DNA of 64,000 nt from an uncultured Clostridia bacterium. Its GTDB lineage: Bacteria; Bacillota; Clostridia; TANB77; CAG-508. The translations under genes were made by a program, and so were the position numbers. The stretch's first letter is position 1, and the number at the start of each line of letters is the position of its first letter. Positions 21,232 through 47,632 of this stretch are shown here, piece after piece. The DNA is taken from assembly GCA_948664205.1 (NCBI GenBank), contig CAPNDH010000001.1, positions 30,165-94,164 of the forward strand, given 5' to 3'. The notes beneath the pieces were generated by a model that worked only from the letters and a program-made list of their open reading frames with translations, was not told the DNA's origin and did no database searches.

Positions 21232-21312
21232 TTTCTTTGGAAGTTAGAAGTTGTAGGTTGGAATTATTGGGTAGTTTCTTCGAAGAGCGGACGTGCAATG
21301 CACGCCCCTACA
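21232..21312. repeat. Family-1 palindromic element (heptad array + TTCGAAG + hairpin + CGCCCCTACA) upstream of the deoB RBS
   Basis: GGAAGTT AGAAGTT GTAGGTT GGAATTA, then TTCTTCGAAGAGCGGACGTGCAATGCACGCCCCTACA. Confidence 0.7.
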
Positions 21313-21318
21313 ATTTTT

Positions 21319-23619
21319 CTAACTTTCAATTTTCTTCTTATACATTTTAAATTCTAAGTTGTATTCATATATATGTATTAGTTTAATTTCGTTTGTGAAT
21401 TCATCTGTTAAAACATTTATATTAAAGTCTTTTCTTGCAACTAATTTCATATCAAATTTATTCAAATCAATTAATACTTTTGTACTTATATCCATACCTA
21501 ATGGAAGTGTTTTGTTTAAATTGTCATAGTACATTATATTTGAATAAAATATAACTGGCATGTTTTCTTTTATATTTATTTTGTATATATTTGTTTCCGC
21601 TTCATTTGTACTTTTTAACAATTCCTCTTTAGGATTTATATTCATTATATTTAAAGCTTTCTCGTTTAGTTCTTCACTACTTGCCATATATATGTGCATA
21701 TCATATGGAGATAGTACCTTTCCATATGCTTCATTTAATAAATTTTTATAATTATTTATATTATCTTTGTACTCTTCTAAAGTAGTTTCTAGATTTATAC
21801 TTAATATTTTATATTTATCTTTTTCTATTTCTCTATGTTTGTTATTATTAAGAACTTTTATTTTAGTTTTATCTTGTGCAACATTTCCAAATATATCAAA
21901 ATCCTTTTGGGTAATTTCATCTATATTTTCTATATATTCTTCCTTAAGTTTCTCTAATTTCTTTTGAATTTTGTTTTCTTCTCTTTTTAGTATCTTCTCT
22001 TTACTTAATATATTAAAAGCATTTAAGTCATTTAAGCAAGCAAATACTGCGTCACATTCATTTTTTGAGAAAGATTCTCTTTGTTTCGAATCTATATGCT
22101 TTCCAAAGTCTTCTAAGTCTTCTTTATAATTAAATACTTTTTTTAGTTTTCCTTTATTTTGATTTTCGTTTTCTTCTGCCTCTGTAAGCATATTTACTTC
22201 ATCTTTATTAGTAAATTTCCAGAAGTCAAAAATACTTTTTTTATGACTTTCTATTTCATTTATATATAAAGTTGCATTTTGTATTTTCTTTTCTAAATTT
22301 TGCTTTTTATTTTCTAGTGCTTTTATATCCATTTCTGAATTCTTGTTTTTTGTTTGTTCTGCTTTTAGTATTTCACATACTTTTAGTAAATCTTCTATTG
22401 TATAAAAATCTTTCTTTTCTATTGTTTCTAGTTTAGTTATTTCTATACTATTCTTTTCTTTACCCTCTTGAAGTTCTTCTTTCTTTATTTTTTTACCTTT
22501 TCCAAAAAAGTATTTTACTCTACCAAAAAATGTTTTTTTACATTCTAAAAACTGTGTAATTTGCTTTTCTTTTGATAAATATTCTTCATTATGTTTTTTT
22601 ACTGTTTCTTTTAAAAGCTCTAAATTTTCTGCAAGCATTATATTTTTTTCATATAATTCGTTTGTCTTTTCTTGTTTTACTTCTACTTCTTTTCGTATGA
22701 ACTCTGACAAATTTTCATATGTTATTTTTTGCATATTATAGCAAAAATCTAAGCTTCCTTCTTCATTTATTAAAGTTTTAAATTTATATTCGTATTCATC
22801 ATTTGACTCAAGTATAAAAAGTGCTTTTATTAATTTGAAGACTTTCCCAGTTTCTTCTTTATCTTTTAAAGTTATTTTATATATACTTCTTACTCCATCA
22901 AATACTGTTGTTGTTCCTAATATTTCAAGCGATGCTTCATTATTTGTATTGTATACTTCATATATATTTGGCCACTCTTTTGTAAATAACCATAAATAAT
23001 TTTCTAGGTCTGATATTTCAGATTTTTTTAGTAATTTATTTGAGTATTCCATATGACTTATTGGAACATATATTAATTCTTTTTTTCTTGATCTTTGTGC
23101 TTCAATTTTTCTTTTTATTAAGTAGAATAAACATTCTGCATTGTTTTCATTGCTAGAATATAACATGAAATATTTATCTTCTACATCTGAATAATATATT
23201 TGCCAAATGTAATTATTTTTATATTTTATTTCATATGGTATTTGTTTATTTAATTCGTTTTGTTCTTCTTCTATGTCTTTAATTTTATCTATATTTAGAT
23301 TATTTAGCATTTTTAAAAATGTTGTATATTCTTCTAAATTTTCCTCACTATTTAACTGCATATAATATGAAATAGGTTTTGCCATCTTTAATTTTTCATT
23401 TAAGTTTTCTAACCTATCTACTGGAGTTATATATATTTCTATGTCTTTTATATCTACATATTTATATACTTTGTAATTATTATCTTCGTATGTTTTTAAT
23501 GGTCTATATTTTATTCTTTCATTGTTTTCAAAACATTTTGGAATTTTTTCTAAGTTTAAGCCTATGTACTTTAGTTTTTCTTCTAACTCCTTACTATCTT
23601 CTTTAGTATTTTTTTGCAC
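21319..23619 (-). CDS. Large coiled-coil hypothetical protein
   Basis: 766 aa, K/E-rich with long predicted coiled coils. No recognisable catalytic motif. Confidence 0.35.
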   Translation of the reverse strand: MQKNTKEDSKELEEKLKYIGLNLEKIPKCFENNERIKYRPLKTYEDNNYKVYKYVDIKDIEIYITPVDRLENLNEKLKMAKPISYYMQLNSEENLEEYTTFLKMLNNLNIDKIKDIEEEQNELNKQIPYEIKYKNNYIWQIYYSDVEDKYFMLYSSNENNAECLFYLIKRKIEAQRSRKKELIYVPISHMEYSNKLLKKSEISDLENYLWLFTKEWPNIYEVYNTNNEASLEILGTTTVFDGVRSIYKITLKDKEETGKVFKLIKALFILESNDEYEYKFKTLINEEGSLDFCYNMQKITYENLSEFIRKEVEVKQEKTNELYEKNIMLAENLELLKETVKKHNEEYLSKEKQITQFLECKKTFFGRVKYFFGKGKKIKKEELQEGKEKNSIEITKLETIEKKDFYTIEDLLKVCEILKAEQTKNKNSEMDIKALENKKQNLEKKIQNATLYINEIESHKKSIFDFWKFTNKDEVNMLTEAEENENQNKGKLKKVFNYKEDLEDFGKHIDSKQRESFSKNECDAVFACLNDLNAFNILSKEKILKREENKIQKKLEKLKEEYIENIDEITQKDFDIFGNVAQDKTKIKVLNNNKHREIEKDKYKILSINLETTLEEYKDNINNYKNLLNEAYGKVLSPYDMHIYMASSEELNEKALNIMNINPKEELLKSTNEAETNIYKINIKENMPVIFYSNIMYYDNLNKTLPLGMDISTKVLIDLNKFDMKLVARKDFNINVLTDEFTNEIKLIHIYEYNLEFKMYKKKIES

Positions 23620-23775
23620 CTTTTTTCCTCCTATTGTTTTTTCTATATTCTAGAAAATTTGTATTTTCGTATTATTAATTCTATTTTTTTAAAGTATATC
23701 ACATATGTTTTTTTTGAGCAATTGTTTATAAAAAAATTTTAAAGGGTAAGAATTAATCTTACCCTTTTGCAATAT

Positions 23776-24279
23776 TTAGTTTTTTACAATTTCGTAGCAA
23801 TCCATAAAACGTCCAAGTAAATATGTATCATATTCGATATATCTAGAATCTCCTACATACTTTATATCTACCTGTACTGCTTCCTTCTTCCCTAATTGTA
23901 CTAATTTAGCATAAAATGCCACATTTCTTTTATTTTGCAAATCATCTAAAAATTTTTCTGAAAATTGTGTACAATCCTTAGGAATCACCTTAGCATATTT
24001 ACTTTTTGAAAGTTCCCTCTTACATACTCTCTCATTATATTTTCTTGTTTCCAGTTTGATGTATTCTTTATATATAAATATGCTAATTATAATATATAGC
24101 GTAAAATATACTATTGTAGAAATAATTGGAATAATACCATTATATGCTATGGCAATCATGGTATTTACATATAAAAATGCCAATCCTATTACTATTTCTG
24201 CTATCATTGTTTTTGTCTTAGCAATTTCTTCTACATTTTTATTTTTTCTCCGTTTTGCCATTTTGCTTTCTCCTTTCAT
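23776..24279 (-). CDS. Hypothetical membrane protein
   Basis: 167 aa with two TM helices. Intrinsic terminator hairpin at about 23742-23768. Confidence 0.3.
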   Translation of the reverse strand: MKGESKMAKRRKNKNVEEIAKTKTMIAEIVIGLAFLYVNTMIAIAYNGIIPIISTIVYFTLYIIISIFIYKEYIKLETRKYNERVCKRELSKSKYAKVIPKDCTQFSEKFLDDLQNKRNVAFYAKLVQLGKKEAVQVDIKYVGDSRYIEYDTYLLGRFMDCYEIVKN

Positions 24280-25128
24280 ATTGCCAGTTTTCTGAAATTA
24301 TTGCAATTTCAAGTTTTTTAAAGTTTCCATAATATAAATTATAACACACTTATTTCTTTTTGTAAATACGTACTATATATTATTACTTTTTCTACTTGTT
24401 TTTTTAGTGCTCCTTCTAGTGCTTTTTTGTACAAATTTAGTTGTTCTTTGTATTTTTCTATTAGTTCGTTTTCATTTTGTACATAGTCTGTTTTGTAGTC
24501 TACTAATACTATATTTCCTTGTTTATCTATATAATATAAATCTATAATTCCTTGTACTAGTACGTTTTCTTCTATTTGATTATTGTAAATTTCACTTGCT
24601 GGAATATTTATATAAAATGGCTCTTCTTTATGCACTTCTTTTGCTTCTTTAAGCTCTTTAAATAAATTTGATTTTGTTAATTGTAATAATGTTTTTGTGT
24701 TTATGCTTTCCACTTCTTTTTCGGTTATTATATTTTTGTTTCTTAATTCTTTTATTAGTTCTATAATATCTTTTAATTCATATTCTTTTTTCTCGTTTAA
24801 GTTTTTAATGCATAAATGCATTAGTGTTCCTTTTTGTGCTCCTGTTATTTTTTCTTCTTTTTCGAAGTTTGGTGTTTTTAGATTTTTTTCGTTTTTTGTA
24901 ATTTCTTTGGAGTGCTGGTCGCCAATGGCTGTGACCCCTACAGGGCTTTCTTTTCTATTTTTTATTTCGCTTACAGAGGTTTTGGTTGGTATGTTTTCTG
25001 AATTTTTGTATTTATATTGCCAATTTAGAATTTCGTTAATTTTTAGTTTTTCGTTCTCTTTGATTTCTTCTTCAAAGTGCAGATCTTCGGAGTCTGCGAT
25101 CCCTACATCAAATTCTTTGCTATTTTCT

Positions 25129-25181
25129 GGGCGTAATTCGGTAAATTCTTTGTGGTATTCCTTACCGATTAAGCCCCTACA
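25129..25181. repeat. Family-2 hairpin element inside the addA C-terminal ORF (in-frame)
   Basis: GGGCGTAATTCGGTAAATTCTTTGTGGTATTCCTTACCGATTAAGCCCCTACA, translated as GLIGKEYHKEFTELRP. Confidence 0.75.
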
Positions 25182-25220
25182 TCCTGTTTCTAGCTCTTGG
25201 CTTCCACTATCTAACATATG

Positions 25221-25285
25221 ACCTCCGACATCCGACTTCTGACTTCTGTTTTGGTAGTTTGTTCGAAGGGCGGGCGATTGATAAT
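25221..25285. repeat. Family-1 element inside addA at the ORF break
   Basis: CCGACAT CCGACTT CTGACTT heptads plus TTCGAAGGGCGGGCGATTGATAATCGCCCCTACA. Translated as ...HYVGAIINRPPFEQTTKTEVRSRMSEVIC*. Confidence 0.75.
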
Positions 25286-26516
25286 CGCCCCTACATAATG
25301 TTCTTGTACCTCTAATATTTGGGCTATTTTTTCTTTGTCATTTAAGTATACTAATTCTATCCAGTCTAAATATGATATGTATTTTTCTAGTAGGTTTTTA
25401 TCTAGTTTTTGTTTGTTGTAAATTTCTAAAAGTGCTTCTTTTTCTTTTAGTGATTTTTGTAAGTCTTTTTCTACACCTGTTATAAATAATTTTTCTTTTG
25501 CTCTTGTAAGTGCAACATATAATACTCTCATTTCTTCTGATATTGTTTCTTTTCTTATTTTCAAACGTAATGCTTCTTTTGCTAATGTATTATATTCTAT
25601 TCTTCGTTCGTAGTTTATGTATTTCATTCCAAATCCTAAGTCTTGGTGCATTAATACATTGTCATTTAGGTCTTGTAGATTGAATTTTTTACTACTTCCA
25701 CATAAAAATACTACTGGAAATTCTAAACCTTTACTTTTGTGAATACTCATAATTCTTACTACATTATCGTTTTCTCCAATTATTTTTGCAGACCCCATAT
25801 CTTTACTGCTTAGCTTTAATTTGTCTATAAAATTTATAAAGTTATACAAACCTTTAAAACTTGCACTTTCATATTGCTTTGCCTTTTCAAATAGCATTTT
25901 TAGGTTTGCTTGTCTTAGTTTTCCGTTGTTTAACAAACCTACATAATTGTAATAATTACTATCCATATATATTTGCCAGATAAGTTCATCTAGTGTTTTG
26001 TATATTTCTATATTTTTCCAATTTTCTAGCATAGTTATGAATCGATTTATTTTCTCTTTTAATTCTTCGCCTACTGCTACTCTTGCTTTTAACATTGCGT
26101 TATAAAAACTTTCACTTCTGTCTGCTAAACGTATTTGTACTAGGTCATTGTCTGTAAAATTTGCTATGCTTGACCTTAATACTGTAATTAGTGGAATATC
26201 TTGAAGTGGATTATTTATTATTTTTAGTACGCTCATTATTGTTTGTATTTCTGTTGATTCTAAGTATTCGCTTGAAGTATCACTAAATACTGATATATTT
26301 TTTTCTATTAATTCTTTTTCATATATTGGTGCTGAATTTAAAGTTGACCTTAATAATATTACTATGTCTTTATATTGTATTGGTCTGTAGCCTGTTTTTC
26401 TGTCGTATATTTGGTATTTGCTATTTATTAGTTCTTGTATTTTGTTTGCGACAAATTTTGCTTCTATTAGGGTGTTTTCTATTGGTTCTTCTACATTTTC
26501 GTCTTCTTGGGTAATT

Positions 26517-26604
26517 TCTTCGAAGGGCAGGCGATTATTTCTTAGCTCTTCGAGCGGATAGCGAGTTAGAGATAAGTTATGCGCTAGCTTAATCGCCCCT
26601 ACAT
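26517..26604. repeat. Family-1 long element inside the addA N-terminal ORF (in-frame, about 30 aa)
   Basis: TTCTTCGAAGGGCAGGCGATT...AATCGCCCCTACA. Its internal segment is the reverse complement of the copy at 40797-40883. Encodes NVGAIKLAHNLSLTRYPLEELRNNRLPFEEIT. Confidence 0.75.
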
Positions 26605-28325
26605 TCGTATTATATTCTTGATTTTGGCTTGCCAAATCTATAATATGTAGTTCTGCTACCGGGTTATTTTCTGTTTGTGGATAGTCCGCTCCTAGGTTTA
26701 GGTATTCATCTTCGTTGTAATCTATATCTCCTAATTCTTTACTCATTATTTGTTCAAATATATTATTTGTAATATCTAGTACATTTTCTCTACTTCTAAA
26801 GTTTTTAAATAATTGTATTTTTTTGCCTTGTTTTTTCTCTATTGTATTAATTAAATTTTGTAGAGTAGCCACAGCAGTATATTTTTCATATTTTTCTAAA
26901 AACAACTCTGGTCTTGCTTGTCTAAACCTATATATACTTTGCTTTACATCTCCAACCATAAATATATTGCTTCCGTTTGAAATACTGTTTAGTATATATT
27001 CTTGTACTAGGTTACTATCTTGATATTCGTCTATTGCTATTTCTGTAAATTTTTCTTTTATCTTGTTTGCAACTTCTGTTGGAACATATTCTCCTTCTTC
27101 ACTTTTTTGTACTAATATTTTTAGTGCAAAATGTTCTATGTCGTGGAAGTCTATTATATTCTTTTCTTTCTTTTTTTCTAAAAATCTTGTTTCAAATTCA
27201 ATAACAATATTTTTTAAATTTGATAATGTTTTATACATTTCGTACATATCTTCATTTGCTCTATATGAATCATATAAAAATATTTTTTTATTTGCAGAAT
27301 CTATATCTTTTTTTACTTTATCTCTTATTTCTTTTGCTTCATCCTTTAATGATATACTTATTTTTCTATCTATTGGCCATTTTTCAAATTTTAAATTTGA
27401 TACTTTTTCATATGTTTTATTCCATATATTTTCATTGTTAGAACTAATTTCATTTTCTATTTCTTGTATAGCTTCAATATCGTTTATTATTGTTAATGAA
27501 TATTTTTCTAGTTCTGGCTCTTTTAATAGTTTTCTTTTTATTCCTTCTAATTTTAATATATTTTCTCTTAATTTTTCTTTATATTCTTTTAACAGAATTT
27601 CTCCCCATATTGTTTTTGCAAAGTCTTTATTTAATTTTTCTTTTAAATTAAACATTTCTACTTTTTCTTCTAGCCATTCTTTAGGAAATGGAGCACTTTG
27701 TATATAATTATATATTCTTAATATTAGTTCTTTTAATGGCTCGTCTCCCCTATATGTTGTATATGTATTTATTAAATTCAAAAATTCTTTATCTTTGTTT
27801 ATATATTTATCCTCAAATAAGTCTTCTAGTATGTCTTGTTTTAGTAATTCTACTTCTGTTTGGTCTCCTATTCTGAAGTTTGCTGATATGTCTAATTCAT
27901 AAAAATAATTTCTAATTACTTCTAGGCAAAATGAGTGTATTGTACATATACTTGCTCTATTTAGTAGTGTTATTTGTCTTTGCATACGTACATCATTTGG
28001 GTTTTCTTCTATTTTTTTATAAATAGCATCTAGTATTCTTTCTCTCATTTCACTTGCGGCTGCATTTGTAAATGTAACAACTAATATATTATCTATATCT
28101 ACATTTTCATTAACTATTTTATTTATTATACGCTCAACAAGCACAGCTGTTTTACCACTTCCTGCAGCTGCTGCAACTAATATATTTGAACCTTTTTCAT
28201 ATATAGCTTTTTGTTGTTCTTTTGTCCATTTAACTTCTGACATATTTCTCCTCCATTTTTTATTACTATATCATAAATCTTTGTTAAAGTAAAACCACAC
28301 AAATTAAATTTTGTGTGGCTTTATT

Positions 28326-28520
28326 TTATATATTTATTATTACAATTGCACCTATTACAGATAGTATAAATCCTATTATTTTAAGAGTTCTTACTACTGA
28401 ATTTCTATCTCCATAGCTAAACCATTTTTCACTTAATTTTCGTGCATCATATATCATAACTACACCTATAGCTACTACTATTAATGATATTATTTGTATT
28501 ACTATTTTTAAGATTGGCAT
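28326..28520 (-). CDS. Small two-TM membrane protein
   Basis: 64 aa, hydrophobic. Terminator hairpin at 28292-28323 downstream. Confidence 0.3.
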   Translation of the reverse strand: MPILKIVIQIISLIVVAIGVVMIYDARKLSEKWFSYGDRNSVVRTLKIIGFILSVIGAIVIINI

Positions 28521-28547
28521 TTTTTATTATCTCCTTTTTTCATATAG

Positions 28548-28598
28548 ATGCGTCAAAAGGGACATATGACGCATTTGTACCTGTCCCCAATGAGTCAT
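28548..28598 (-). repeat. Family-3 structured element abutting the stop codon of 28598..29470
   Basis: TGCGTCAAAAGGGACATATGACGCATTTGTACCTGTCCCCAATGAGTCAT. GGGAC/GTCCC and ATGACGCATT/AATG(A/C)GTCAT pairings interleave. Confidence 0.6.
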
Positions 28599-29470: not shown

Positions 29471-29768
29471 AGATTTCTCCCTTCTTCAATTTTTCTAAAA
29501 ATTAATTATACAAAGTCTACATTTTACTAAAGTATAATTTATCTATATACATTAAACAAGTTATATTATTGACATATCAACTTAGGAAATGTTAGTTTTT
29601 CTTTCGTAGTATATAATATATTGTTTTTATGTAAATGTCAATACATTGCTACAATATTTATTATTATATTTTAATTACTTTATTGCAAATTATAATATAT
29701 TTATAAATAAAAAGTCGATATTAATAAGTAAAGAACCGTATTAAACGGTTCTTTACTTATTATATTAT

Positions 29769-33315: not shown

Positions 33316-33336
33316 TTTAATTCCTCCTTTTATAAT

Positions 33337-33440
33337 TGGAGGTTGGAAGTTGGAGATTGGAGATTGGAACTTCTGGGGAATTCCTTCGAAGAATTTACCC
33401 CATATTCCAACTTCCAACTTCTAACTTCTAACTTCCATAT
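33337..33440. repeat. Long palindromic Family-1 element (heptad arrays flank a GGGGAATTCCTTCGAAGAATTTACCCC core) between the T-box terminator and the glyQS RBS
   Basis: GGAAGTT GGAGATT GGAGATT GGAACTT ... CCAACTT CCAACTT CTAACTT CTAACTT CC. Both arms are visible in the sequence. Confidence 0.75.
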
Positions 33441-33700
33441 AAAAAAACTTTCATTCCTAGCCTTTTAGCTAGGGACGAAAGTTTTATTTTTCCGCGGTTC
33501 CACCCTAATTGGTAATTATTTTTGTTAATTACCCTCTTTTATTTTTATATGCTCCAAAGCTCCCCACAAATATTTTATTGTTGGCTTTCACCTTAACCCA
33601 ACTCTCTTTTTAATAAAATAATTTTGCTTTTTCTCTTTCATTGCATTTATATTTAACTAATTTATATTATTTTATTCTTTTTTTATAATAAAGTCAATAT
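33432..33700 (-). promoter_or_regulatory. T-box riboswitch leader of glyQS with intrinsic terminator
   Basis: Minus-strand AAUUAGGGUGGAACCGCGG T-box sequence (33492-33510). Terminator hairpin 33441-33485 followed by a U-tract. Confidence 0.7.
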
Positions 33701-36540: not shown

Positions 36541-36659
36541 TGTAGAAGTCGCCGCCTTATCATGCAACTTGTGCTTCAACGAAATTACTTAAATAAAATA
36601 TGTATTTTTATAGCATTTCTTCGAAGATCGGGTCGCTTGATAAGGCGGCGACCCCTACA
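36541..36659. mobile_element. MITE-like Family-1 element with about 22-bp terminal inverted repeats
   Basis: TGTAGAAGTCGCCGCCTTATCA ... TGATAAGGCGGCGACCCCTACA. Internal CAACGAAATT...GCATTTCTTCGAAG is shared with the copy at 47528-47632. Confidence 0.7.
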
Positions 36660-36757
36660 ATTATTATATGTTATTTATTATATAAAGTTACAATTCAAGG
36701 TTAAATCATCCTATAATTATTCACTATTAACTATTCATTATTCACTTAGGCTTCCTT

Positions 36758-38708: not shown

Positions 38709-38760
38709 GGGCGTAATTCGGTATTTCTCATAGGTATTCCTTACCGATTAAGCCCCTACA
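38709..38760. repeat. Family-2 hairpin element
   Basis: GGGCGTAATTCGGTATTTCTCATAGGTATTCCTTACCGATTAAGCCCCTACA. Confidence 0.75.
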
Positions 38761-38818
38761 TTTAATAATTATTCACTATTCATTCTTCATTATTCACTTA
38801 GCACGTAAGTGCGCTTTA

Positions 38819-40672
38819 TTATCTTCTTGCTTCTCTTTCTCTTGTTTTTGTGTCTAGTGTTTTCTTTCTTAAACGAATATTTTTTGGTGTTACTTCTACT
38901 AGCTCATCTTCTGCTATGAATTCTATTGCTTTTTCTAGTGACATTTGAAGTGGTGGTACTAGACGTAGTGCGTCATCTGAACCTGAGGCTCTTGTGTTTG
39001 TTAGGTGCTTTTCTTTACATACGTTTATTGCTATATCTTCATTTCTTGAGTTTATTCCTACTATCATTCCCTCATATACATCTACACCTGCTCCTATTAG
39101 TAGTTCTCCTCTTTCTTGTGCATTATATAAACCATATGTTACACTTGTTCCTTGTTCCCATGCTACTAGTACTCCTCTTGTTCTTGCTTGTATGTCTCCT
39201 TTAAATGGTTCGTAGCAATCAAATATTGAGTTCATTGTTCCTTCACCTTTTGTATCTGTTAAAAACTCTGTTCTATAACCTATTAGTCCACGTGCTGGTA
39301 TTTTGAATTCTACTTTTGTGTGTCCCGCTTCTGCTGGTTCCATATTTGTCATTTCACCTTTACGTCTTCCTAATTTTTCTATTACTGTTCCTATTGATTC
39401 GTCTGGTACATTTACTACTAGTCTTTCTACTGGTTCACATTTTACACCATCTATTTCTTTGAATATAACTTTTGGACGTGATACTAATAGTTCAAATCCT
39501 TCTCTTCTCATTGTTTCTATTAATACTGATAAGTGTAGTTCCCCACGTCCACATACTTCGAAACTATCTGCTGAATCTGTTTCTTTTACACGTAAAGACA
39601 CATTTCTTTCTAGTTCTTTGAATAATCTATCTCTAATGTGACGTGATGTTATGAATTCTCCTTCTTTTCCTGCAAATGGTCCATTGTTTACACTAAATGT
39701 CATTGATACTGTTGGTTCATCTATATCTACAAAAGGTATTTTTTCTGGGTTATTTAGGTCACATATTGTGTCTCCTATGTTAATATCTGCTACACCTGAT
39801 AGTGAAACTATATCTCCTGCTGTTGCTTCTTCTACTTCTGTTCTTTTTAGACCTTGATATGTGAATAGTTTTGCTACTTTTCCTTGTGCATTTTTTTCTT
39901 GCTTACATATTGCTATTGGCATTCCTGCTTTTATTGTGCCACGTTCTATTCTTCCTACTGCTATTCTTCCTAGGTAGTCATCATAGTCTATGTTTGAAAC
40001 TAGCATTTGCGCTGGTCCATCTATTTCACATTCTGGCGCATCTATATATTTTACTATTGTATCAAATATACAGTTTACATTATCACTTTCTTCTGATAGG
40101 CTCATTTTCGCTATTCCACTTTTTGCTGATGCATATATTACTGGGAAGTCTAATTGGTCATCATTTGCATCTAATTCTATGAATAGTTCTAGTACTTTGT
40201 CTACTACTTTTTCAGGGTCTGATCCTGGTCTATCTATTTTATTTATTACTACTATTGGTTTTAAGTTTAATGCCAATGATTTTTTAAGTACCTCTCTTGT
40301 TTGAGGCATTGGTCCTTCAAATGCATCTACTAATAGTAATACTCCATCTACTGTTTTTAGTACACGTTCTACTTCTCCACCGAAATCTGCGTGACCTGGT
40401 GTATCTACTATATTTATTTTTATATCATTATACATTACTGATGTATTTTTTGAAAGAATTGTTATTCCTCTTTCTTTTTCTAGGTCATTTGAGTCCATTA
40501 CTCTTTCTGCTACTTGTTCATTTTCTCTAAATACATGACTTTGACGTAGTAGGCAGTCTACTAACGTTGTTTTTCCGTGGTCAACGTGTGCAATTATTGC
40601 TATATTTCTTATATTTTCATTTTTCATTTTTATTTTTCCCCTTTCAAAATTCGAAGAATTTTGTACTTTCAC
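38819..40672 (-). CDS. typA: Translational GTPase TypA/BipA
   Basis: 617 aa, NIAIIAHVDHGKTTLVD...DTPGHADFGGEVERVL, with EF-G-like domains. Confidence 0.9.
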   Translation of the reverse strand: MKVQNSSNFERGKIKMKNENIRNIAIIAHVDHGKTTLVDCLLRQSHVFRENEQVAERVMDSNDLEKERGITILSKNTSVMYNDIKINIVDTPGHADFGGEVERVLKTVDGVLLLVDAFEGPMPQTREVLKKSLALNLKPIVVINKIDRPGSDPEKVVDKVLELFIELDANDDQLDFPVIYASAKSGIAKMSLSEESDNVNCIFDTIVKYIDAPECEIDGPAQMLVSNIDYDDYLGRIAVGRIERGTIKAGMPIAICKQEKNAQGKVAKLFTYQGLKRTEVEEATAGDIVSLSGVADINIGDTICDLNNPEKIPFVDIDEPTVSMTFSVNNGPFAGKEGEFITSRHIRDRLFKELERNVSLRVKETDSADSFEVCGRGELHLSVLIETMRREGFELLVSRPKVIFKEIDGVKCEPVERLVVNVPDESIGTVIEKLGRRKGEMTNMEPAEAGHTKVEFKIPARGLIGYRTEFLTDTKGEGTMNSIFDCYEPFKGDIQARTRGVLVAWEQGTSVTYGLYNAQERGELLIGAGVDVYEGMIVGINSRNEDIAINVCKEKHLTNTRASGSDDALRLVPPLQMSLEKAIEFIAEDELVEVTPKNIRLRKKTLDTKTREREARR

Positions 40673-40796
40673 TATTCATTCTTCACTTTTCACTATATTA
40701 ATTTTTCCATTATTATCGGGCAGACACATTTCGCCTGCCCTCCCAAGCCGTAGGTTTGTACTATTCACTATTAACTATTCACTATTCACTGAACAA

Positions 40797-40945
40797 TTCC
40801 TTCGAAGTGCGGGCGATTGGCTTTGCATAACTTATCTCTAACTCGCTAATCGCTCGAAGAGCTAAGAAAATAATCGCCCCTACGTTTCTTTTATGTTTTC
40901 TATATGTTGTAGTTACACAGGCCGACGAAGGCGACGACCCCTACG
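40797..40945. repeat. Family-1 long element plus adjacent mini-element, preceded by a TATTCAC heptad array
   Basis: TTCGAAGTGCGGGCGATT...AATCGCCCCTACG and TGTAGTTACACAGGCCGACGAAGGCGACGACCCCTACG. Heptads TATTCAC x4 at 40761-40790. Confidence 0.7.
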
Positions 40946-40977
40946 GTGGTTTTATTATATAGATTTTTTGTTTTTCT

Positions 40978-42078
40978 TTACATCTCTTCTTTATATTCGT
41001 TAGATGTTCCTTCTAATTCTTTTATAGAAAGTTCTATCTTCTCATTTTCCTTATCTAAATCTATAATTTTTGCATTTACGTGTTGTCCTAGTTTTAATTC
41101 TTCCTCTGGTTTTGCTAATTTTCTTTCTGCTATTTGTGATATATGTACTAATCCTTCAATTCCTGATTCTAATTCTACAAATACTCCAAATGGCATTATT
41201 TTTACTACTTTTACCTTTACAACATCATTTATATGATATTTTTCATCAATATTATTCCAAGGGTTTTGACCCTTTTCTCCATATGAAAGTTTTATTCTTT
41301 TATTTTCTTTGTCGACATCTTTTATAGTTATTTCTATTTTCTGCCCTTGCTTTAATATTTCATTTACTTTTGCGTTTCTATCCCATGATATCTCTGATAC
41401 ATGTAGTAAACCTTGCACAATTCCATCTAAATCTATAAATGCTCCATATGAGCTTATACTTGCTACTGTTCCTTCGTATTTTCTACCTATTTCTACATTA
41501 TTCCAAAATTCTTCTTGTTTTGCTTTTTTTTCTTCATCTAATACATTTTTAATAGAGCCTATTATTTTATTTGTTTTTGCATCATATTCAGTTATTCTAA
41601 ATTTTACAGTTTGACCTTGTAATTTTGAAGCATCTTCTCCTCTTGGAATACCTGATAAAGAAAGTGGTATAAATACCCTTTTATTTAATACTTCTACTAT
41701 TATTCCTTTATCGTTTACTTCTTTTACTTTTTCTTCAAATATTTCATTATTATTAATTTTGTTTTCTAGTTCTTCTTTTTCTTTTCTCTGTTTTACTCTT
41801 TTATATGATAGTAATACATTTCCAAGACCATCATTTTGTTTTAATACATCTGCTGTAATTATATCTCCTACTTTAAATTCGTCTTTAGGATTTTTAGTTT
41901 CATCATTACTATATTCTTTTTTTGGTATAATTCCATCTGCTTTATAATGAATATCAACAAAAATTTCCCCTTGTTTTGTAATACTAATAATTTTGCCTGT
42001 TACTGTTTTTCCTAATTTTGTTTCTTTTAAAGACTCATTATATAGTTCTTCAAAAGATAATTCTTTTTCATTTTCCAT
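40978..42078 (-). CDS. S1 RNA-binding domain protein (ribosomal protein S1 homolog, 4 S1 repeats)
   Basis: 366 aa with four S1 folds. Consensus promoter TTGACA-17-TATAAT on the minus strand at about 42155-42183. Confidence 0.65.
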   Translation of the reverse strand: MENEKELSFEELYNESLKETKLGKTVTGKIISITKQGEIFVDIHYKADGIIPKKEYSNDETKNPKDEFKVGDIITADVLKQNDGLGNVLLSYKRVKQRKEKEELENKINNNEIFEEKVKEVNDKGIIVEVLNKRVFIPLSLSGIPRGEDASKLQGQTVKFRITEYDAKTNKIIGSIKNVLDEEKKAKQEEFWNNVEIGRKYEGTVASISSYGAFIDLDGIVQGLLHVSEISWDRNAKVNEILKQGQKIEITIKDVDKENKRIKLSYGEKGQNPWNNIDEKYHINDVVKVKVVKIMPFGVFVELESGIEGLVHISQIAERKLAKPEEELKLGQHVNAKIIDLDKENEKIELSIKELEGTSNEYKEEM

Positions 42079-42225
42079 ATTTTCACCTTATTTTTAAATT
42101 TGTATTTTTAGTTATTTATTAATTTAATACCTACTTATACATTTTAACTCTTTTATTATAATTTATCAAGTCCGAATTGTCAACATAAATTAAGCAAAAA
42201 ATTAAAATACACAGTAGGAATATTC

Positions 42226-42963
42226 CTACTGTGCAAATTGTGAAGTAATCCATTTTATCACTTGTCCTTTTATAGCAAAATACTCTTCTTTTTCAAATTG
42301 CATATTTGCAATACAATATCTACGATTTGATATATGTGAACAAAACATACATTCATGCAAAGAATTCGAATCTTGTATAAAAAACGAATTGCTAATTTTA
42401 GCTGAACATATTACATTATAACTATTAGAACAACTACCTGAATCATCTACTCTAATACAATAGCTACAGTTCGAGCTTCTTTGACATGCTATTACATATT
42501 CCGAATCTCCACATCCATCTGTAAATATTACATTTTTACTTTTTCTACAATCTTGACTTCTATATACATTTTCACAGTTATATATTGTGTCACTTTTCGA
42601 AACATTAATACTGTCATAAACTCGTTCGGTTGTAGTGTAATTTATTTTATTCCATAATTTTATAATTTCATCAAGAGAACTTATTTCCTTTTTAGGTCTC
42701 ATCCATCCCTTATATTCATCATATTTTTCCATATTTTCTTGAGTTATGTATTTATTAGAATTAATTGAAGAAGCCCATGTTTCAACTCCTGTAACTGCAT
42801 CTATAACTTTATTTGGAAGTTTTATATCAAATGCAAATTCTGATAATACCTCTTCCAAACTTAATAAACACTTTTGTTCAAAAATTTCCATAAAAATTTC
42901 ATCTACCACACTTTTACATTGTTTTTCATTCATTTTATCTCTCCTATTATTATTCATTTTCAA
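42226..42963 (-). CDS. Cys-rich hypothetical protein
   Basis: 245 aa. The C-terminal half has degenerate repeats (CxxSxNCSYC / SGSCSNSYNVIC / ECMFCSH). 14-nt overlap with the upstream ATPase gene. Terminator hairpin 42210-42233. Confidence 0.35.
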   Translation of the reverse strand: MKMNNNRRDKMNEKQCKSVVDEIFMEIFEQKCLLSLEEVLSEFAFDIKLPNKVIDAVTGVETWASSINSNKYITQENMEKYDEYKGWMRPKKEISSLDEIIKLWNKINYTTTERVYDSINVSKSDTIYNCENVYRSQDCRKSKNVIFTDGCGDSEYVIACQRSSNCSYCIRVDDSGSCSNSYNVICSAKISNSFFIQDSNSLHECMFCSHISNRRYCIANMQFEKEEYFAIKGQVIKWITSQFAQ

Positions 42964-44836
42964 AATTCATTCTTTTTCTTGAAGCTGATGTCTTTGTCAT
43001 TATATCTCTTAATGAATTTGTTGTTTCTATATTAAAAATCTTTTTCTTTTGTATATTTTCCTTTTTATTCATATCTTTATTCTTATTTATTTTTCTTTTT
43101 ATTCTAGGTACTGGTATAAAATCTAAAGTTTTGCCTTTAAAAGCTGATAACATTCTTCCATCTCTTCCTATCCTTGCTATACATTCCCTATCATTTAATT
43201 CTGTAAGCATTTTTATTCTTGTAATATGTGAATTTTTTACTGCAACTTCCATTTGCATATTGCTTTCTAGTAATATTGCATCCATTCTTGAAACTCTAAA
43301 AATAAAGTAATTTATAACATTTGTAAATATTGCTTTTTGCAAATTTTCGCTAATTTGTTCAAAATATTGACCTGCTAAAATTAATGAAAGATTATATTTT
43401 CTCGCTTCTGCTAGAAATCTAGTTATTATGGGATTTTCTATAATAGAGACTTCGTCTATAACCAATATAATATGTTCATTAAATGTATGTGATTGTACTA
43501 ATTGTAAAATTTGTTGCATTGCAAAACCTGCTATTGTTTTTGTTATATTTAGGCCTAGTGTCATTTGGTCTAATGATAGTACTGTAATAAAGTTTTGTTC
43601 TATTTCTTCTTTAATATTTTTTATTTCAGATATATTATTTATTGCTGGTAATAGTTGCATTTCATCTATAAAAGAAATTATAGGTGATATTGCTTCTTGA
43701 TATGATTTTGTTTTTAGTTCATTAAAATCTACTCTAAAAAATTCTATTATATTGGGTTGTATTACATCTTCAACTTCTCTTATAATTTTATTTCTGTATT
43801 CTATTTCTATTAATAACTTTCGTAAACTTATTAAATTAAATTCTCCTTTTTCTAGTAATAAATGTATACTATACCTTAATACCCTTTCTAATTTTGAATT
43901 ATATTTGTCTGCTATAATATTTTTAAATATAGACATAATAGATTCCGTGGAAGATAATATATCTTCTGCTGAATTCATAAATAAGTTTATACTACTATCC
44001 TCTGTTTTAAAGTCAATTACATTTGCACTTTCTAATCCTCCAATATCTTCTTCCATGGCTGCATGTGGGTCAATTACAACTATTTTATACTTTAATTTAT
44101 TATTACTATTCATACTTAAGTTTTTTATAATCGAGCTTATAAATTTAGATTTTCCTGTTCCACTTGCCCCTACTACAATAGAATGTTTTGCAAAATCGTA
44201 ATTTTTATAGTTTAAGTATAATTCTTCTTGCAAATATGGAAATACGTTCGCTTTTAGTAACGCATTTTCTTTATCACTACTTAATATGTTTATAACTTTT
44301 TTACTATCTAAATATTTTGCTTCACTTTTTTGGTAGAAAAACCTTATATGCGTACCAAAGTCAATACTTATAAATTTATATATTTCATTATTTCCTATTA
44401 CTTTTCTCTTTATTATTTTTCCTTTTTCATCTTTAAAATAAAAATTGGTTGTTGATAAGTAATTATTATATTTATATGGGTAAAATGATATTTTTATATT
44501 TTTTAGTTTTTGTAGTTTTCTTGTTTCATTTTTATCATATACATCTAATAATGTTTTATAGTTACGTGTAAGTAAATATGGAATTCCTAAGCTTGATATT
44601 TCCCTTAATTCTATATCTGTTTTTTTTATTAAAAATTCGCCTAAATCGCCTAATATTGGCGGTAATATTCTTGTAGTTTCTATAAAATATCTTATATAAT
44701 TGTTTTCAATATGTATCCATAGATTCCATTTTTTTAACATTCCATTTATTTTAGATATTTTATATATTAAATTTAGCCATTCCTCACTTTTAACATGTGA
44801 TGATGTTAAACATATTTCAAATACATTTTCCTTCAT
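42950..44836 (-). CDS. HerA/FtsK-like (DUF87-type) P-loop ATPase; start moved to the internal Met with RBS AAGGAAAA
   Basis: Walker A VVGASGTGKSKF followed by VVIDPHAAME (a HerA-like xxDPHGEY block). Walker B HIILVIDEVS, LAGQYFEQ motif, basic C-terminal tail. Confidence 0.5.
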   Translation of the reverse strand: MKENVFEICLTSSHVKSEEWLNLIYKISKINGMLKKWNLWIHIENNYIRYFIETTRILPPILGDLGEFLIKKTDIELREISSLGIPYLLTRNYKTLLDVYDKNETRKLQKLKNIKISFYPYKYNNYLSTTNFYFKDEKGKIIKRKVIGNNEIYKFISIDFGTHIRFFYQKSEAKYLDSKKVINILSSDKENALLKANVFPYLQEELYLNYKNYDFAKHSIVVGASGTGKSKFISSIIKNLSMNSNNKLKYKIVVIDPHAAMEEDIGGLESANVIDFKTEDSSINLFMNSAEDILSSTESIMSIFKNIIADKYNSKLERVLRYSIHLLLEKGEFNLISLRKLLIEIEYRNKIIREVEDVIQPNIIEFFRVDFNELKTKSYQEAISPIISFIDEMQLLPAINNISEIKNIKEEIEQNFITVLSLDQMTLGLNITKTIAGFAMQQILQLVQSHTFNEHIILVIDEVSIIENPIITRFLAEARKYNLSLILAGQYFEQISENLQKAIFTNVINYFIFRVSRMDAILLESNMQMEVAVKNSHITRIKMLTELNDRECIARIGRDGRMLSAFKGKTLDFIPVPRIKRKINKNKDMNKKENIQKKKIFNIETTNSLRDIMTKTSASRKRMNFENE

Positions 44837-44912
44837 TTTTATTTTTTCCTTTTTTGCTTTTATTATAGCATCTTTTGACATAAAAAAACTGACATTTTTA
44901 TTTCAAAAAAAG

Positions 44913-45707
44913 TCAGTTTTCTATTGGTACTAAAAAATCTGTAATTTCATCATGATAAAATTCAATCTCTGGTAAATCTCTAAAATTATATTTACAGCTT
45001 GGCAAAAAATCTGTATAAAACATTTTTGATACTTTTTGTATTTCATTTGCTCTGTGTGAATCTATTCTTATTTGTATATATTTACTTTTAGGTATTATTT
45101 TTTTTATTAATTCCTCTTTTTCTTCTTCATATAATATCCAATATGCTTTTATATGTAACCTTTCTTTATCTTTATATTCTACCATTCCATATACTGGTTT
45201 TTGATTATATTTTTTTTCAATCTCTTTAAAAAACTTTGGAGCATCTTGTTCTATTTCTTCATTTGTTGTTGATTTATATGTTCCATATAATATCATTTTT
45301 TCTTTTTCTATAATTTTGTATTCTATATTTTTATTTAGTTCCCTTTCCTCATTAAAGTGCAATTTTGTATATATTTTTAATTTATCAGGCTTCTTTTTTA
45401 CTTGGCTTGGTTTTATTCCATGAAATTTTTCAAATGCTCTAGAAAATGATATTGAATTATTATATTGATATTTTATGGCCACATCTATTATTTTTTCATT
45501 ATTTATAAATAATTCTTCTCCTGCATTTGATAATCTTCTATTCCTTACATATTCTGAGATAGAAATATTACATATTACAGAAAATATCTTTCGAAAAGTA
45601 TATTCATTTACTCCTATCATTTTTGCAAGTTCTTTATTATCTATTTTTTCTTCTAAATTATTTTCTATATATTCTATTATTTCATTTAGTTGTTTATAAA
45701 TATTCAT
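44913..45707 (-). CDS. AraC/XylS-family regulator with C-terminal GyrI-like effector domain
   Basis: N-terminal HTH_AraC (ISEYVRNRRLSNAGEEL...), C-terminal GyrI-like fold. Terminator hairpin overlapping the stop at 44885-44920. Confidence 0.7.
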   Translation of the reverse strand: MNIYKQLNEIIEYIENNLEEKIDNKELAKMIGVNEYTFRKIFSVICNISISEYVRNRRLSNAGEELFINNEKIIDVAIKYQYNNSISFSRAFEKFHGIKPSQVKKKPDKLKIYTKLHFNEERELNKNIEYKIIEKEKMILYGTYKSTTNEEIEQDAPKFFKEIEKKYNQKPVYGMVEYKDKERLHIKAYWILYEEEKEELIKKIIPKSKYIQIRIDSHRANEIQKVSKMFYTDFLPSCKYNFRDLPEIEFYHDEITDFLVPIEN

Positions 45708-45811
45708 ATTTTTATTCCTTATTTGTTTTTTATTACTTTATATCATATTTCTTTTAATTTTCATAGCTTTTTTATTAATTTATAAAAAATAATATAAAGC
45801 TTGTACAAAAA

Positions 45812-45863
45812 TGAGTCAAAAGGGACAGATGACGCATTTGAAAACGTCCCCAATGCGTCATCC
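45812..45863 (-). repeat. Family-3 element abutting the stop codon of 45867..46304
   Basis: ATGAGTCAAAAGGGACAGATGACGCATTTGAAAACGTCCCCAATGCGTCATCC. 11-bp stem GATGACGCATT/AATGCGTCATC plus GGGGAC/GTCCC and a U-tract on the minus strand. Confidence 0.6.
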
Positions 45864-45866
45864 TTT

Positions 45867-46304
45867 TTATCTTCTACGACAACACCATGTTGTTTGACAT
45901 CCATTTGCATCCCTTACGTTTACTGTTGCTGTATTGTTATTATTGCAGTTACAATTACAATTGTTATTGTTGTTTAAAATATTTGCAACTCTTGTTGCTA
46001 TGTTTTGCATATCTGCATTTGATAATTGAACTTCATTGTTATTATTGTTATTTTCTCTACATGGGCATGTTCTTCTACATCTGTTAAAAAACAATTCTAC
46101 TATCCATGCTGTTATATATGCTATTATTGTGTATACAATTACAAAAATCAAAAAACTTGCATCAAATGCTGCAAATGCTACTATTAAGTATATTGCGAAA
46201 AATGTTAATGCTGTTAATATTGGGCATCTTAATATTTTTTCTATAACAATTGCAAGTATTATTGTTGCAATTGGGAGTGCAAAGTATATTAATAATGTAT
46301 TCAT
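45867..46304 (-). CDS. Membrane protein with Asn/Cys-rich low-complexity tail
   Basis: 145 aa with 3 TM helices, then NNNNNNEVQL...NNNNNCNCNCNNNN...CCRRR. Confidence 0.3.
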   Translation of the reverse strand: MNTLLIYFALPIATIILAIVIEKILRCPILTALTFFAIYLIVAFAAFDASFLIFVIVYTIIAYITAWIVELFFNRCRRTCPCRENNNNNNEVQLSNADMQNIATRVANILNNNNNCNCNCNNNNTATVNVRDANGCQTTWCCRRR

Positions 46305-46533
46305 ATTAATCTCTCCTCTTATTTTATATTCTGTTATATAGTATGCTTTTTTACTTTTTTGTGTGCATTAATTGTAGCTATCATTAGTTTCAATTAATAG
46401 TTTATAAGTAAATATGCATTGTAACAGATATTAATGTATTTTACATAAATTGTTGATTTTATTATGTTTTTGTTGTATAATATAAGTATGAAACCTATTA
46501 TGAAATTTGCCACAACAAAGAGGAGGATTCATT

Positions 46534-46692
46534 ATGTATAATGCAGGGCTTTACATGGGAACATCTAAACATTTTGATTCGAAAAGAGTGTCCGAGATCC
46601 GCAATCGTTACTTTTATGCACGTCAGCTCGAGCCTGCTCGTGAGAACATGCGGAAATTAAGGGAGGAAAAAGCGCTTAGGGCGAAGCAGTAA
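46534..46692 (+). CDS. Small basic protein (52 aa) with anomalous GC/codon usage; start at the ATG after RBS AAGAGGAGG
   Basis: Promoter TTGATT-17-TATAAT at 46453-46481. Strong RBS. Terminator hairpin 46713-46742. The coding region is about 50% GC in an AT-rich genome. Confidence 0.35.
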   Translation: MYNAGLYMGTSKHFDSKRVSEIRNRYFYARQLEPARENMRKLREEKALRAKQ

Positions 46693-46749
46693 TTACCTGC
46701 TATACGGCAACAAAAACCAATGGTTATTTCCATTGGTTTTTTGTTAATT

Positions 46750-47457
46750 TTAATATTCTACTTTTACCAAATACAAAGCATAAGGTGGAAGTGTTTTTCC
46801 TGCTCTTGTTCTATCTTTTGATTCTATAATACTAGTTATTTCTTCTGGTTTTATTTTTCCTAAACCCACATCTACCAGTGTTCCTGATATTATTCTTACC
46901 ATATTATATAAAAAACCATTTCCTGTAAGTTCTATTTTTATTCTTTCTCCATCTTCTATTATATTTGTTTTATATATAATTCTTACACTACTTTTACTAC
47001 TTGTTCCACTTGATTTAAAACCTTTAAAGTCGTGTTCTCCTTCGAAATATTTAATTGCTTTTTTCATTTCTTCTACATTTAGCTTTACTGGAACGTAATA
47101 TTCTAAGTTTCTATATATTGCAGACCCTTGTTTTCCATTATTTATAATATATCTATATGTTTTTTGTTTACAATTATATCTGCTATGAAATCTTTCTTCT
47201 ACTTCTTCTGCTTTTTGTATTCTTATAGATTTTTTTAGTTTTGAGTTTATTGCAACTGCAAATTTTTCTATTGGCAGAGTACTATTTGTTTTAAAGTTTG
47301 CAACTTGAGCAATAGCATGTACTCCAGCATCTGTTCTACCCGATGCTGTTAGGTCTACTTGTTCACCTGTTATTAGTTCTATTGCTCTTTCTATTTCTCC
47401 TTGTATATTTAGTTTTGTTGGCTGTTTCTGCCAACCGATTAAAATCTTTTCCATCAT
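46750..47457 (-). CDS. truA: tRNA pseudouridine(38-40) synthase
   Basis: 235 aa, ...ASGRTDAGVHAIAQVANF... catalytic Asp motif. Confidence 0.85.
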   Translation of the reverse strand: MMEKILIGWQKQPTKLNIQGEIERAIELITGEQVDLTASGRTDAGVHAIAQVANFKTNSTLPIEKFAVAINSKLKKSIRIQKAEEVEERFHSRYNCKQKTYRYIINNGKQGSAIYRNLEYYVPVKLNVEEMKKAIKYFEGEHDFKGFKSSGTSSKSSVRIIYKTNIIEDGERIKIELTGNGFLYNMVRIISGTLVDVGLGKIKPEEITSIIESKDRTRAGKTLPPYALYLVKVEY

Positions 47458-47527
47458 ATTCTATTGTTAGTTTTATATTTCTCATATTTGACCTATTCCT
47501 TTTTAGTATAGTTATCATAAATACTAT

Positions 47528-47632
47528 TGTAGGGGCGACTATTAGTCGTCCGTGCTCCAACGAAATTGCCCTATAAATATTATATTTTAGCAATTTCTTC
47601 GAAGAGCGGACGAGCTATGCTCGCCCCTACAA
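47528..47632. mobile_element. MITE-like Family-1 element with TIRs TGTAGGGGCGA...TCGCCCCTACA
   Basis: TGTAGGGGCGACTATTAGTCGTCCG...TTCTTCGAAGAGCGGACGAGCTATGCTCGCCCCTACA. Spurious ORF 47363..47593 reads through it. Confidence 0.7.

Follow-up and report, generated by a model that had tools for sequence, protein, structure and literature searches.

A probable GTAG-type REP-RAYT system in low-GC uncultured gut Clostridia

A stretch of 64,000 nucleotides from an uncultured Clostridia bacterium (contig CAPNDH010000001.1, positions 30,165 to 94,164; hereafter the window) contains a cluster of short GC-rich hairpin repeats, some of them with arrays of tandem 7-bp units alongside, and the question raised by this locus is what kind of element these repeats are and what may have spread them. 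The original prediction, made from the letters of the window, had taken the longer forms for miniature inverted-repeat transposable elements (MITEs). The analysis presented here favors a different answer, to which a probability of roughly 0.8 was assigned: the repeats belong to a repetitive extragenic palindromic (REP) system of the GTAG type, made up of single units, inverted doublets and mosaics (bacterial interspersed mosaic elements, BIMEs, or REP doublets forming hairpins, REPINs), together with a REP-associated tyrosine transposase (RAYT), in low-GC uncultured gut Clostridia. The elements have the tested features that define GTAG-type REPs with a RAYT, and fail those that define classical MITEs, as target duplications are lacking, and terminators.

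The repeat unit and a transposase beside it

The motif CCCCTAC occurred 16 times in the window, compared with 1.2 expected and with no shuffle of 100 reaching 16, and TTCGAAG occurred 18 times (1.9 expected). Fourteen of the 16 CCCCTAC sites were on the plus strand, antisense to the genes. About 13 of the 16 were GC-rich hairpin units, all within approximately 28 kb (21-49 kb), and there were no GTAGGGG heads at all in positions 1-19900 or 49100-64000. Most of the hairpin units in the window were followed by CTTCGAAGAAATTAC, some were arranged in inverted doublets of 105-150 nt, and some had 7-bp arrays beside them. On the gene-sense strand the unit consists of 5'-T-GTAG, an 8-bp GC-rich hairpin of the form GGGCGnnn(loop)nnnCG(C/T)CC, and then G-nn-CTTCGAAGAAATTAC. 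As read in the window it is 5'-TGTAG, the GC-rich hairpin and G-nn-CTTCGAAGAAAnTAC, with the linker also written CTTCGAAG, and the consensus of the copies across genomes was ..TTAAGTAATTTC-TTCGAAG-nn-CGG(G/A)CG-stem-loop-stem-CGCCCCTACA.

All 87 distinct modules shared a common fold, in which TGTAG is followed by an 8-bp stem with a loop of 3-4 nt, and TGTAGGGG was invariant directly before the stem. T1, G2, T3, A4 and G5 were invariant in alignment A1, all sequences of which had been picked by a pattern ending in CCCCTACA. Covariation was tested on 33 distinct 34-mers, using 500 shuffles and controls in which the pairing partner was slid along the alignment. Cells were paired in 92% of cases, compared with 80% in the shuffles and 36-49% when the partner was slid by 1-3 columns. 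Two-sided changes were seen in 39 cells and in five of the nine pairs, against 10.9 cells in the shuffles, none of which reached 39, so that the compensatory change earlier noticed between hairpins is real. At stem pair 8-22, 17 sequences had G.U and 15 had G-C, and the opposite strand would have an A.C mismatch in place of the wobble; this pair therefore points to the GTAG strand as the strand that matters. A covariance model built from the copies of other genomes gave five significant matches when run on the window: at 25262-25295, 21279-21312 and 47598-47631 (E = 1e-11 to 5e-11), at 47528-47560 (E = 3.5e-6) and at 36620-36659 (E = 2e-4). The long forms folded as long hairpins when treated as single-stranded DNA (z = -7.4, -8.4 and -11).

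GC-rich stem-loops that stand after genes are also what intrinsic transcription terminators would look like. However, no module was found among the 11 terminator-like sites of the window, the recognisable terminators of which look different; the stem is followed by GnnCTTCGAAG and not by a T-run on the sense strand; and copies also occur within ORFs (open reading frames) and between a leader and its gene. Termination is therefore a most improbable function for these hairpins.

A scan of one genome per species with a strict pattern, TTCTTCGAAGNNCGG..CCCCTACA, gave matches in more than 113 stretches, and the matches listed included 36 species of uncultured gut Clostridia, from animals and humans, known as metagenome-assembled genomes (MAGs). 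All but two of the matches listed were in Clostridia MAGs, and those two look like chance. Stretches of related genomes that were chosen for holding a copy are referred to by L-numbers (for example, L028 and L055). Positions were analyzed in about 0.88 Mb of such copy-selected loci, which contained 259 hairpin-backed heads; the heads were mostly intergenic, and 110 of the 259 had an inverted partner no more than 220 nt away. Some genomes contained compact doublets, in which two unlike hairpins face each other across a TTCGAA palindrome.

RAYT and IS200 sequences, used as a lead, pointed to small ORFs beside modules at three loci, which were then confirmed by profile and structure searches as a transposase gene of the Y1/HUH type, coding for 150 aa, in related genomes. 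The products of L055:1321-1773 and L093:5645-6148 matched Pfam Y1_Tnp with 28.5 and 28.9 bits, respectively (gathering threshold 23). The L055 protein scored 63.5 bits against the NCBIfam model for REP-associated tyrosine transposases, which has a curated cut-off of 80, compared with 17 bits for IS200. The only match in the PDB was 4ER8, the TnpA-REP protein of E. coli (E = 1.6e-5), with PNHLH aligned to PEHMH at the HUH motif and YIKNN aligned to YIYIN at the tyrosine. Relatives of the transposase comprised 2628 cluster representatives, some of which have been named 'REP element-mobilizing transposase RayT' by the Joint Genome Institute (JGI), and most of the RAYT-bearing metagenome contigs were only about 1 kb long.

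At six independent loci (L055, L093, L059, L118, L119-121 and L122-124), the transposase gene lay between inverted copies of exactly the hairpin described above, with TGTAGGGGCGATTTTAATCGCCCG located upstream of it and CGGGCGATTAAAATCGCCCCTACA right after its stop codon, and the GTAG tag was found on both REPs beside every RAYT gene. A RAYT gene flanked by its own REPs is the defining layout of the REP-RAYT system (PMC2817692, PMC3733652). The flanks of the L059 gene also carried the TTCGAAGAAATT linker and thus matched the ends of the window's long forms, which suggests that these long forms are the two ends of such a transposase unit, each a REP plus linker, from which the gene would have been deleted. 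A transposase with matching ends, for which the original prediction had suggested looking, was thus found in related genomes and not in the window itself. Beside the RAYT gene of L093, at about 6330-6600, there were tandem units of about 110 nt, with a module at the end of each (ggtaatttc[c/t]tcgtatggcggg[c/t]gattaaaatcgcccctaca).

The DNA examined contained at most one transposase gene per MAG, with no tnpB adjoining, and 3 transposase genes were present in the 0.88 Mb that held the 259 hairpin-backed heads. Gene neighborhoods differed among genomes, and one gene context recurred in three samples. These observations bear on the possibility that the transposase units are ordinary autonomous insertion sequences (IS) of the IS200/IS605 type and that the short elements are their deletion derivatives, without any single-copy, vertically inherited partnership of RAYT and REP. 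The gene is bracketed by inverted ends as in an IS, the long forms resemble such ends with the gene deleted, Pfam reports Y1_Tnp only, and the neighborhoods of the gene differ. On the other side are the far better score to the RAYT model than to IS200, TnpA-REP as the sole structural match, the lack of a TnpB partner, the finding of no more than one transposase gene per MAG in the DNA examined, its shared context in three samples and the large excess of hairpins over transposase genes, which together make this alternative improbable.

Another possibility, that the repeats are classical MITEs whose movement depends on a DDE transposase recognizing terminal inverted repeats and making target-site duplications, derives its appeal from the inverted ends of the long forms, which were indeed present and measured roughly 25-45 bp. 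A single comparison of filled and empty sites was available. A 115-nt composite in L079, in which a REP module lies between a heptamer array and an inverted one, had no counterpart in L028, where the orthologous spacer measures 12 nt; the flanks at this junction were about 90% identical and there was no target duplication, neither the TA nor the TACA that had been suggested earlier. Nor were target duplications found around doublets. Most units are single hairpins, and the transposase that matches them is a Y1/HUH enzyme. As in the MITE proposal, the repeats are best regarded as short elements without a transposase of their own; a DDE parent with terminal inverted repeats and target-site duplications is extremely improbable.

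In the mechanism that we propose for the REP-RAYT system, the transposase would bind the folded hairpin and its GTAG tag on single-stranded DNA; where genes run with replication, the gene-sense strand would be the template of the lagging strand. By cutting and rejoining beside the hairpin, the enzyme could cause units and doublets to be copied, lost or exchanged in trans. Copies would then persist where they do little harm, that is, 3' of genes, between the genes of operons, in 5' leaders, and in-frame in flexible protein linkers. Transcribed along with their hosts, they would probably act as RNA stem-loops as well, which would be a secondary effect.

Position, copies within genes and turnover

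Single copies located between same-strand genes were strongly oriented, with the GTAG strand being the sense strand in 81 cases and the antisense strand in 3 (p = 1e-20), and they began a median of 56 nt past the upstream stop codon. This bias fits insertion into the lagging-strand template, as known for IS200/IS605, and selection on the transcript alike.

Copies were also present inside genes. The helicase portion of AddA is encoded by the ORF at 25211-28243 (1010 aa; E = 1e-214 to the AddA of B. subtilis), and AddA residues 540-578, which have no counterpart in the B. subtilis protein, are encoded by the module at 26510-26603, read in-frame as ..NVGAIKLAHNLSLTRYPLEELRNNRLPFEEIT... In a second species, the AddA of which has 54% protein identity, this very linker carried a simple module that is read as ..DVGATSSRPPFEEI.. 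The nuclease domain of AddA is encoded by a separate ORF at 24339-25217 (292 aa) that holds two further units. Elsewhere, in-frame copies were found in a GH94 enzyme, an Lhr-like helicase, the linker of an amidotransferase and a TilS-like protein. REPs within repair genes have been reported earlier, among them recB, which carries one at the same position in two species of Xanthomonas (PMC3733652).

The addA gene (24339-28243, minus strand) is thus split into helicase and nuclease ORFs at 25211-25217, within a cluster of REP units. Addition of one unit to the heptamer array at 25219-25248, or removal of two, would give a single addA ORF of 1303 aa. The split could be slippage-driven variation, or it could be a repeat that was collapsed in the assembly. 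Four other assemblies of the species were 100% identical to the window over the part in common, and so showed no strain polymorphism; their contigs end at the REP cluster near 25180, and no empty site for any copy of the window was found. In the WRFS01 MAG, seven contig ends (L022, L029, L039, L042, L051, L063 and L117) were located about 57 nt inside the same long-form element, which indicates that these repeats break metagenome assemblies.

Comparison of orthologous sites provided further evidence of turnover. The long form at 47528-47632 differed from its L114 orthologue at 2 of about 88 positions outside the right-arm hairpin (about 97% identity), with flanks that were about 86% identical, while the stem of the right hairpin had been exchanged (GAGC/GCTC in one, GGCT/AGCC in the other). 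In total, comparison of the window with L114 or L078 gave three orthologous sites at which the hairpin or the whole element had been exchanged. These data show that the elements turn over by exchange at fixed sites, plus gain or loss. The cause may be either the action of the transposase or gene conversion between copies.

These positions also invite the interpretation that the modules are kept mainly as RNA structures, such as stabilizers at 3' ends or within operons, sites of RNase processing or hairpins before ribosome-binding sites (RBSs), their spread by a transposase being incidental or ancient. The orientation with transcription, the G.U wobble on the sense strand only and the short distance past the upstream stop codon are all in agreement with it, as are an element in a 5' leader after a T-box, composites that end a few nucleotides before a Shine-Dalgarno sequence and the retention of copies at orthologous sites across species; the same argument has been made for GTAG REPs (PMC3733652). 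However, insertion into the lagging-strand template predicts the same orientation bias, copies are found inside coding sequence too, whole hairpin sequences are exchanged while their sites stay fixed, and the association with the transposase is direct. We consider it unlikely that RNA structure is the main reason for which the modules are kept.

Several observations weigh against a REP-RAYT system. The NCBIfam RAYT score of the Clostridial protein, 63.5, is under the curated cut-off of 80. No RAYT gene was found in the 64-kb window, either with the RAYT and IS200 sequences first used or with the confirmed Clostridial RAYTs, and none was tied to the species of the window or to its closest relative (the JAAVYV MAG), the contigs checked having come from other genomes. 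Single units account for more than half of the total, and excision that requires two ends would not move these. Several copies occupied corresponding sites in species with a DNA identity of only about 85%, and one, that of the addA linker, did so at 54% protein identity; sites shared across such distant species argue for long persistence or selection and not for frequent jumping. A deletion could account for the L079/L028 difference, which is the only comparison of a filled with an empty site, and neither the conserved linker nor the heptamer arms have a role in the known RAYT mechanism. Finally, the copy numbers come from selected loci and not from complete genomes.

Elements of the window and heptamer arrays

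The window is chromosomal in character, with a GC content of 26% and with long ORFs nearly all on the minus strand of a Clostridial chromosome. Its genes are those of a spore-forming Firmicute, and include a SpoIVB peptidase, a MurC-type ligase, BipA, ribosomal protein S1, a class II aminoacyl-tRNA synthetase and AddA. Origin from a phage or plasmid was rejected, as there was no megablast match in phages and the gene content is chromosomal and Firmicute. The other occurrences of this DNA were in metagenome assemblies only. Across the whole window, neither tRNA genes nor Rfam matches reaching the gathering score were found. The first 19 kb contain a polysaccharide, glycosyltransferase and ABC-exporter/transporter cluster, and the elements are confined to the housekeeping block at 21-49 kb. 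The sole clear plus-strand gene, an HNH endonuclease-like ORF (19276-19932), is followed by a lone CGCCCCTAC tag at 19976-19982 without an obvious hairpin. At about 54600-54720 there is GC-rich intergenic DNA with no Rfam match, for which the orthologous site in L114 is a composite of heptamer arms and a REP.

Every copy listed in the original prediction was found in the window on inspection of the sequence, although several of the descriptions had to be revised. A single REP module at 21263-21312 (minus strand) reads TGTAG-GGGCGTGCA..TGCACGTCC-GCTCTTCGAAGAAACTACCCAA on that strand, matches the covariance model with 54 bits (E = 3.8e-11), begins 6 nt past the stop of the upstream ORF and is identical in four independent assemblies. 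The minus-strand heptamer array next to it (21232-21262), of the GGAAGTT type as read on the plus strand, is just upstream of the RBS and ATG (21219) of a phosphopentomutase-like gene.

All of the addA elements are on the minus strand. Within the nuclease-domain ORF there is a decayed module of the GGGGTCGCC class (24898-24942), read in-frame as ..PVGVTAIGDQHSKEIT.., and inside the start of this ORF is a REP of a second family (25129-25181), with a TGTAGGGGC head and a longer imperfect stem. The array at 25219-25248 has CAGAAGT/CGGAGGT units on the sense strand, the last of which gives the GGAGG before the ATG at 25217. It adjoins a single REP module at 25249-25295, in the tail of the helicase ORF and read as ..YVGAIINRPPFEQ.. 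(55.8 bits, E = 1.4e-11 with the covariance model), which had been thought to end at 25285 and in fact ends at 25295. The module at 26510-26603 contains a loop segment of about 52 nt, located between GGGCGATT and AATCGCCC, that is inverted relative to the other copies. The segment is also present in L028, L089 and L099, and had one orientation in four copies, among them the REP module at 40791-40884 (minus strand). The earlier observation that the internal segments of the copies at 26517 and 40797 are reverse complements of each other was borne out. As an independent palindrome the segment was rejected, since its fold was no better than that of shuffles (z = -0.4 to -1.2).

What had been described as one copy at 40797-40945 is present as two units: the module at 40791-40884, for which the L078 orthologous site is a simple hairpin, and a decayed REP of the GGGGTCGCC class at 40910-40945 (minus strand) that is intact in the L078 orthologue. 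A minus-strand heptamer array of the ACTATTC type (40760-40790) adjoins the first of these. Two long forms are REPIN-like doublets. In the one at 36541-36659, two inverted REP+linker modules are separated by an AT-rich spacer (-33.1 kcal/mol, z = -8.4); the left head has decayed to TGTAGAAG, and the right arm matches the covariance model. A heptamer array of the TATTCAC type (36718-36746, minus strand) lies 60 nt from this doublet, just past the spoIVB stop. The long form at 47528-47632 has two different hairpins, with covariance model matches on both arms (z = -7.4).

In addition to the decayed unit at 24898-24942, the second family of REPs, at 25129-25181, 38709-38760 and 48872-49022, was absent from the original prediction. 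Its members keep the TGTAGGGGC head and have an imperfect stem of roughly 20 bp (GGGCTTAATCGGTAAGG...). The second of them forms, with a heptamer array at 38770-38798, a minus-strand element downstream of bipA (38709-38798). The third is an inverted doublet of 150 nt (-45 kcal/mol, z = -11), and the orthologous site in L114 holds a long form of the first family.

The element at 33337-33440 differs from all of these. It has the heptamer arms and the TTCGAAG center that had been attributed to it, with GGGGAATTCCTTCGAAGAATTTACCCC at the center (DNA fold z = -5.3), and has neither the GC hairpin nor CCCCTACA. It is located between a T-box leader (33468-33650, minus strand; 78.3 bits, E = 2e-17, with an Rfam gathering score of 93) and the start codon of a class II aminoacyl-tRNA synthetase gene, or more exactly between the T-box terminator and the RBS. 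Matches of this region to microRNA-like Rfam families were rejected, as they were weak and merely reflect the long hairpin.

Arrays with a period of 7 were common in these genomes, and 21 of 48 were within 80 nt of a module motif. They had been regarded as constant direct-repeat arms of the hairpin element, which did not hold, as most module copies elsewhere have no arrays and the arrays belong, as its arms, to a distinct palindromic partner, which is also found free of hairpins. They usually occurred in inverted pairs, the center of which was a REP module in L032, L049, L079 and L114, the bare palindrome TAGGGTAATTTC-TTCGAA-GAAATTACCCTA in L089, L103 and the window (33337-33440), and something unrelated in L016, L085, L098 and L110. 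This variety of centers indicates that the module is a REP joined to half of a TTCGAA palindrome and that the arrays are a mosaic partner and not a part of the REP. REP-free inverted arrays were found at L089 ~6026-6120, L103 4136-4236, L016 1865-1969, L098 6967-7071 and L110 2395-2487, with units of the types GGAAGTT, GAAGTCA, GAAGTGA and AATGAAT. The mismatches in heptamer arms (33337-33440; L032 2929-3048; L079 4238-4356) took the form of G.T when read along the CCCCTAC strand and of A.C along the GTAG strand, whereas the REP stem shows the reverse.

It is conceivable, if doubtful, that the heptamer-arm palindromes are a separate, undescribed structured repeat, consisting of inverted arrays of GAAGTnn-type 7-bp units around TAGGGTAATTTC-TTCGAA-GAAATTACCCTA, to which REP hairpins were joined at TTCGAA through cutting and rejoining by the transposase. 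Joining at that center would account for a module that is always a REP plus half a center. Composites often stop a few nucleotides before an RBS, and with arrays directly upstream of such sites or in the linkers of coding genes, the arrays might serve as slippage switches or as tuners of translation or mRNA stability.

Comparison with known systems

REP and REPIN-RAYT systems have been studied almost only in Proteobacteria, so the family described here would extend such a system to a new phylum. It is abundant and common to dozens of species of uncultured gut Clostridia, and thousands of members of its cognate family of transposases are present in metagenomes. The repeats explain assembly fragmentation in these genomes and could be used as a marker of the clade. 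Sites that are kept across species while the hairpin is exchanged offer natural material for the study of REP persistence, and the in-frame copies in addA parallel the REPs of recB, with the array that splits or fuses addA providing a lead on repeat-driven variation of a DNA repair enzyme. A search for the repeat sequence in the searchable literature gave only unrelated matches to eukaryotic primers, and RAYTs in Clostridia have been noted only in passing.

Among the closest known elements are the GTAG REPs, the recognized traits of which are the GTAG tag, G-T pairs in the stem, unidirectional intergenic sites downstream of ORFs and a RAYT flanked by REPs (Di Nocera et al. 2013, PMC3733652). 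In that survey GTAG REPs were detected in Proteobacteria, Cyanobacteria, Chloroflexi and the PVC group (Planctomycetes, Verrucomicrobia and Chlamydiae), and not in Firmicutes (PMC3733652). The two share REPs placed in-frame in replication and repair genes: recB in the earlier survey and addA, its Firmicute counterpart, here, at the same linker in two species. None of the 24 families of that superfamily was reported with heptamer arrays (PMC3733652).

As in the REP/BIME and TnpA-REP system of E. coli (PDB 4ER8), an unpaired GTAG precedes a short, imperfect GC-rich palindrome, units are found singly, in inverted pairs and combined with other short motifs in mosaics, and inverted REPs bracket a transposase gene, the product of which aligns to 4ER8 across the HUH motif and the tyrosine. 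Unlike the E. coli system, the host is a Clostridial one with 26% GC, the stem sequence is another, the CTTCGAAGAAATTAC linker is fixed, and the mosaic partners are heptamer arrays; the Clostridial protein is only distantly related to TnpA-REP (E = 1.6e-5) and is under the NCBIfam cut-off. In the REPIN-RAYT systems of Pseudomonas and Enterobacteria, inverted doublets form long hairpins upon folding, and their presumed mobilization in trans is attributed to a single-copy RAYT (Bertels and Rainey; PMC3116915, PMC5581495). Inverted REP doublets that fold in this manner were found here as well, but more than half of the Clostridial units are single, and the arms of the doublets often carry different hairpins. 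RAYTs of Group 1 were noted in Clostridia in that work, as a group not strongly associated with REPs (PMC3116915, PMC5581495).

Resemblance to the IS200/IS605 family (IS608, ISDra2) would lie, by analogy, in the Y1/HUH transposase, the subterminal hairpins on single-stranded DNA, the lack of target duplications and a bias toward the lagging-strand template; the differences are the better RAYT score, the lack of TnpB and the vast excess of hairpins over transposase genes. Rickettsia palindromic elements (RPEs) are similar in behavior only, being inserted in-frame in coding genes and read as an extra peptide. Their sequence and host are unrelated, and intragenic copies are a minority in the family described here. 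RPEs are not known to have a dedicated transposase. The short tandemly repeated repetitive (STRR) sequences of cyanobacteria are short intergenic arrays of tandem 7-bp units. The arrays found here differ from them in having other units, in forming inverted pairs around a palindromic center and in their Clostridial host. No published description of these repeats was found, and they appear to represent a new family of an already known type of element, in a phylum new to that type and with an unusual mosaic partner.

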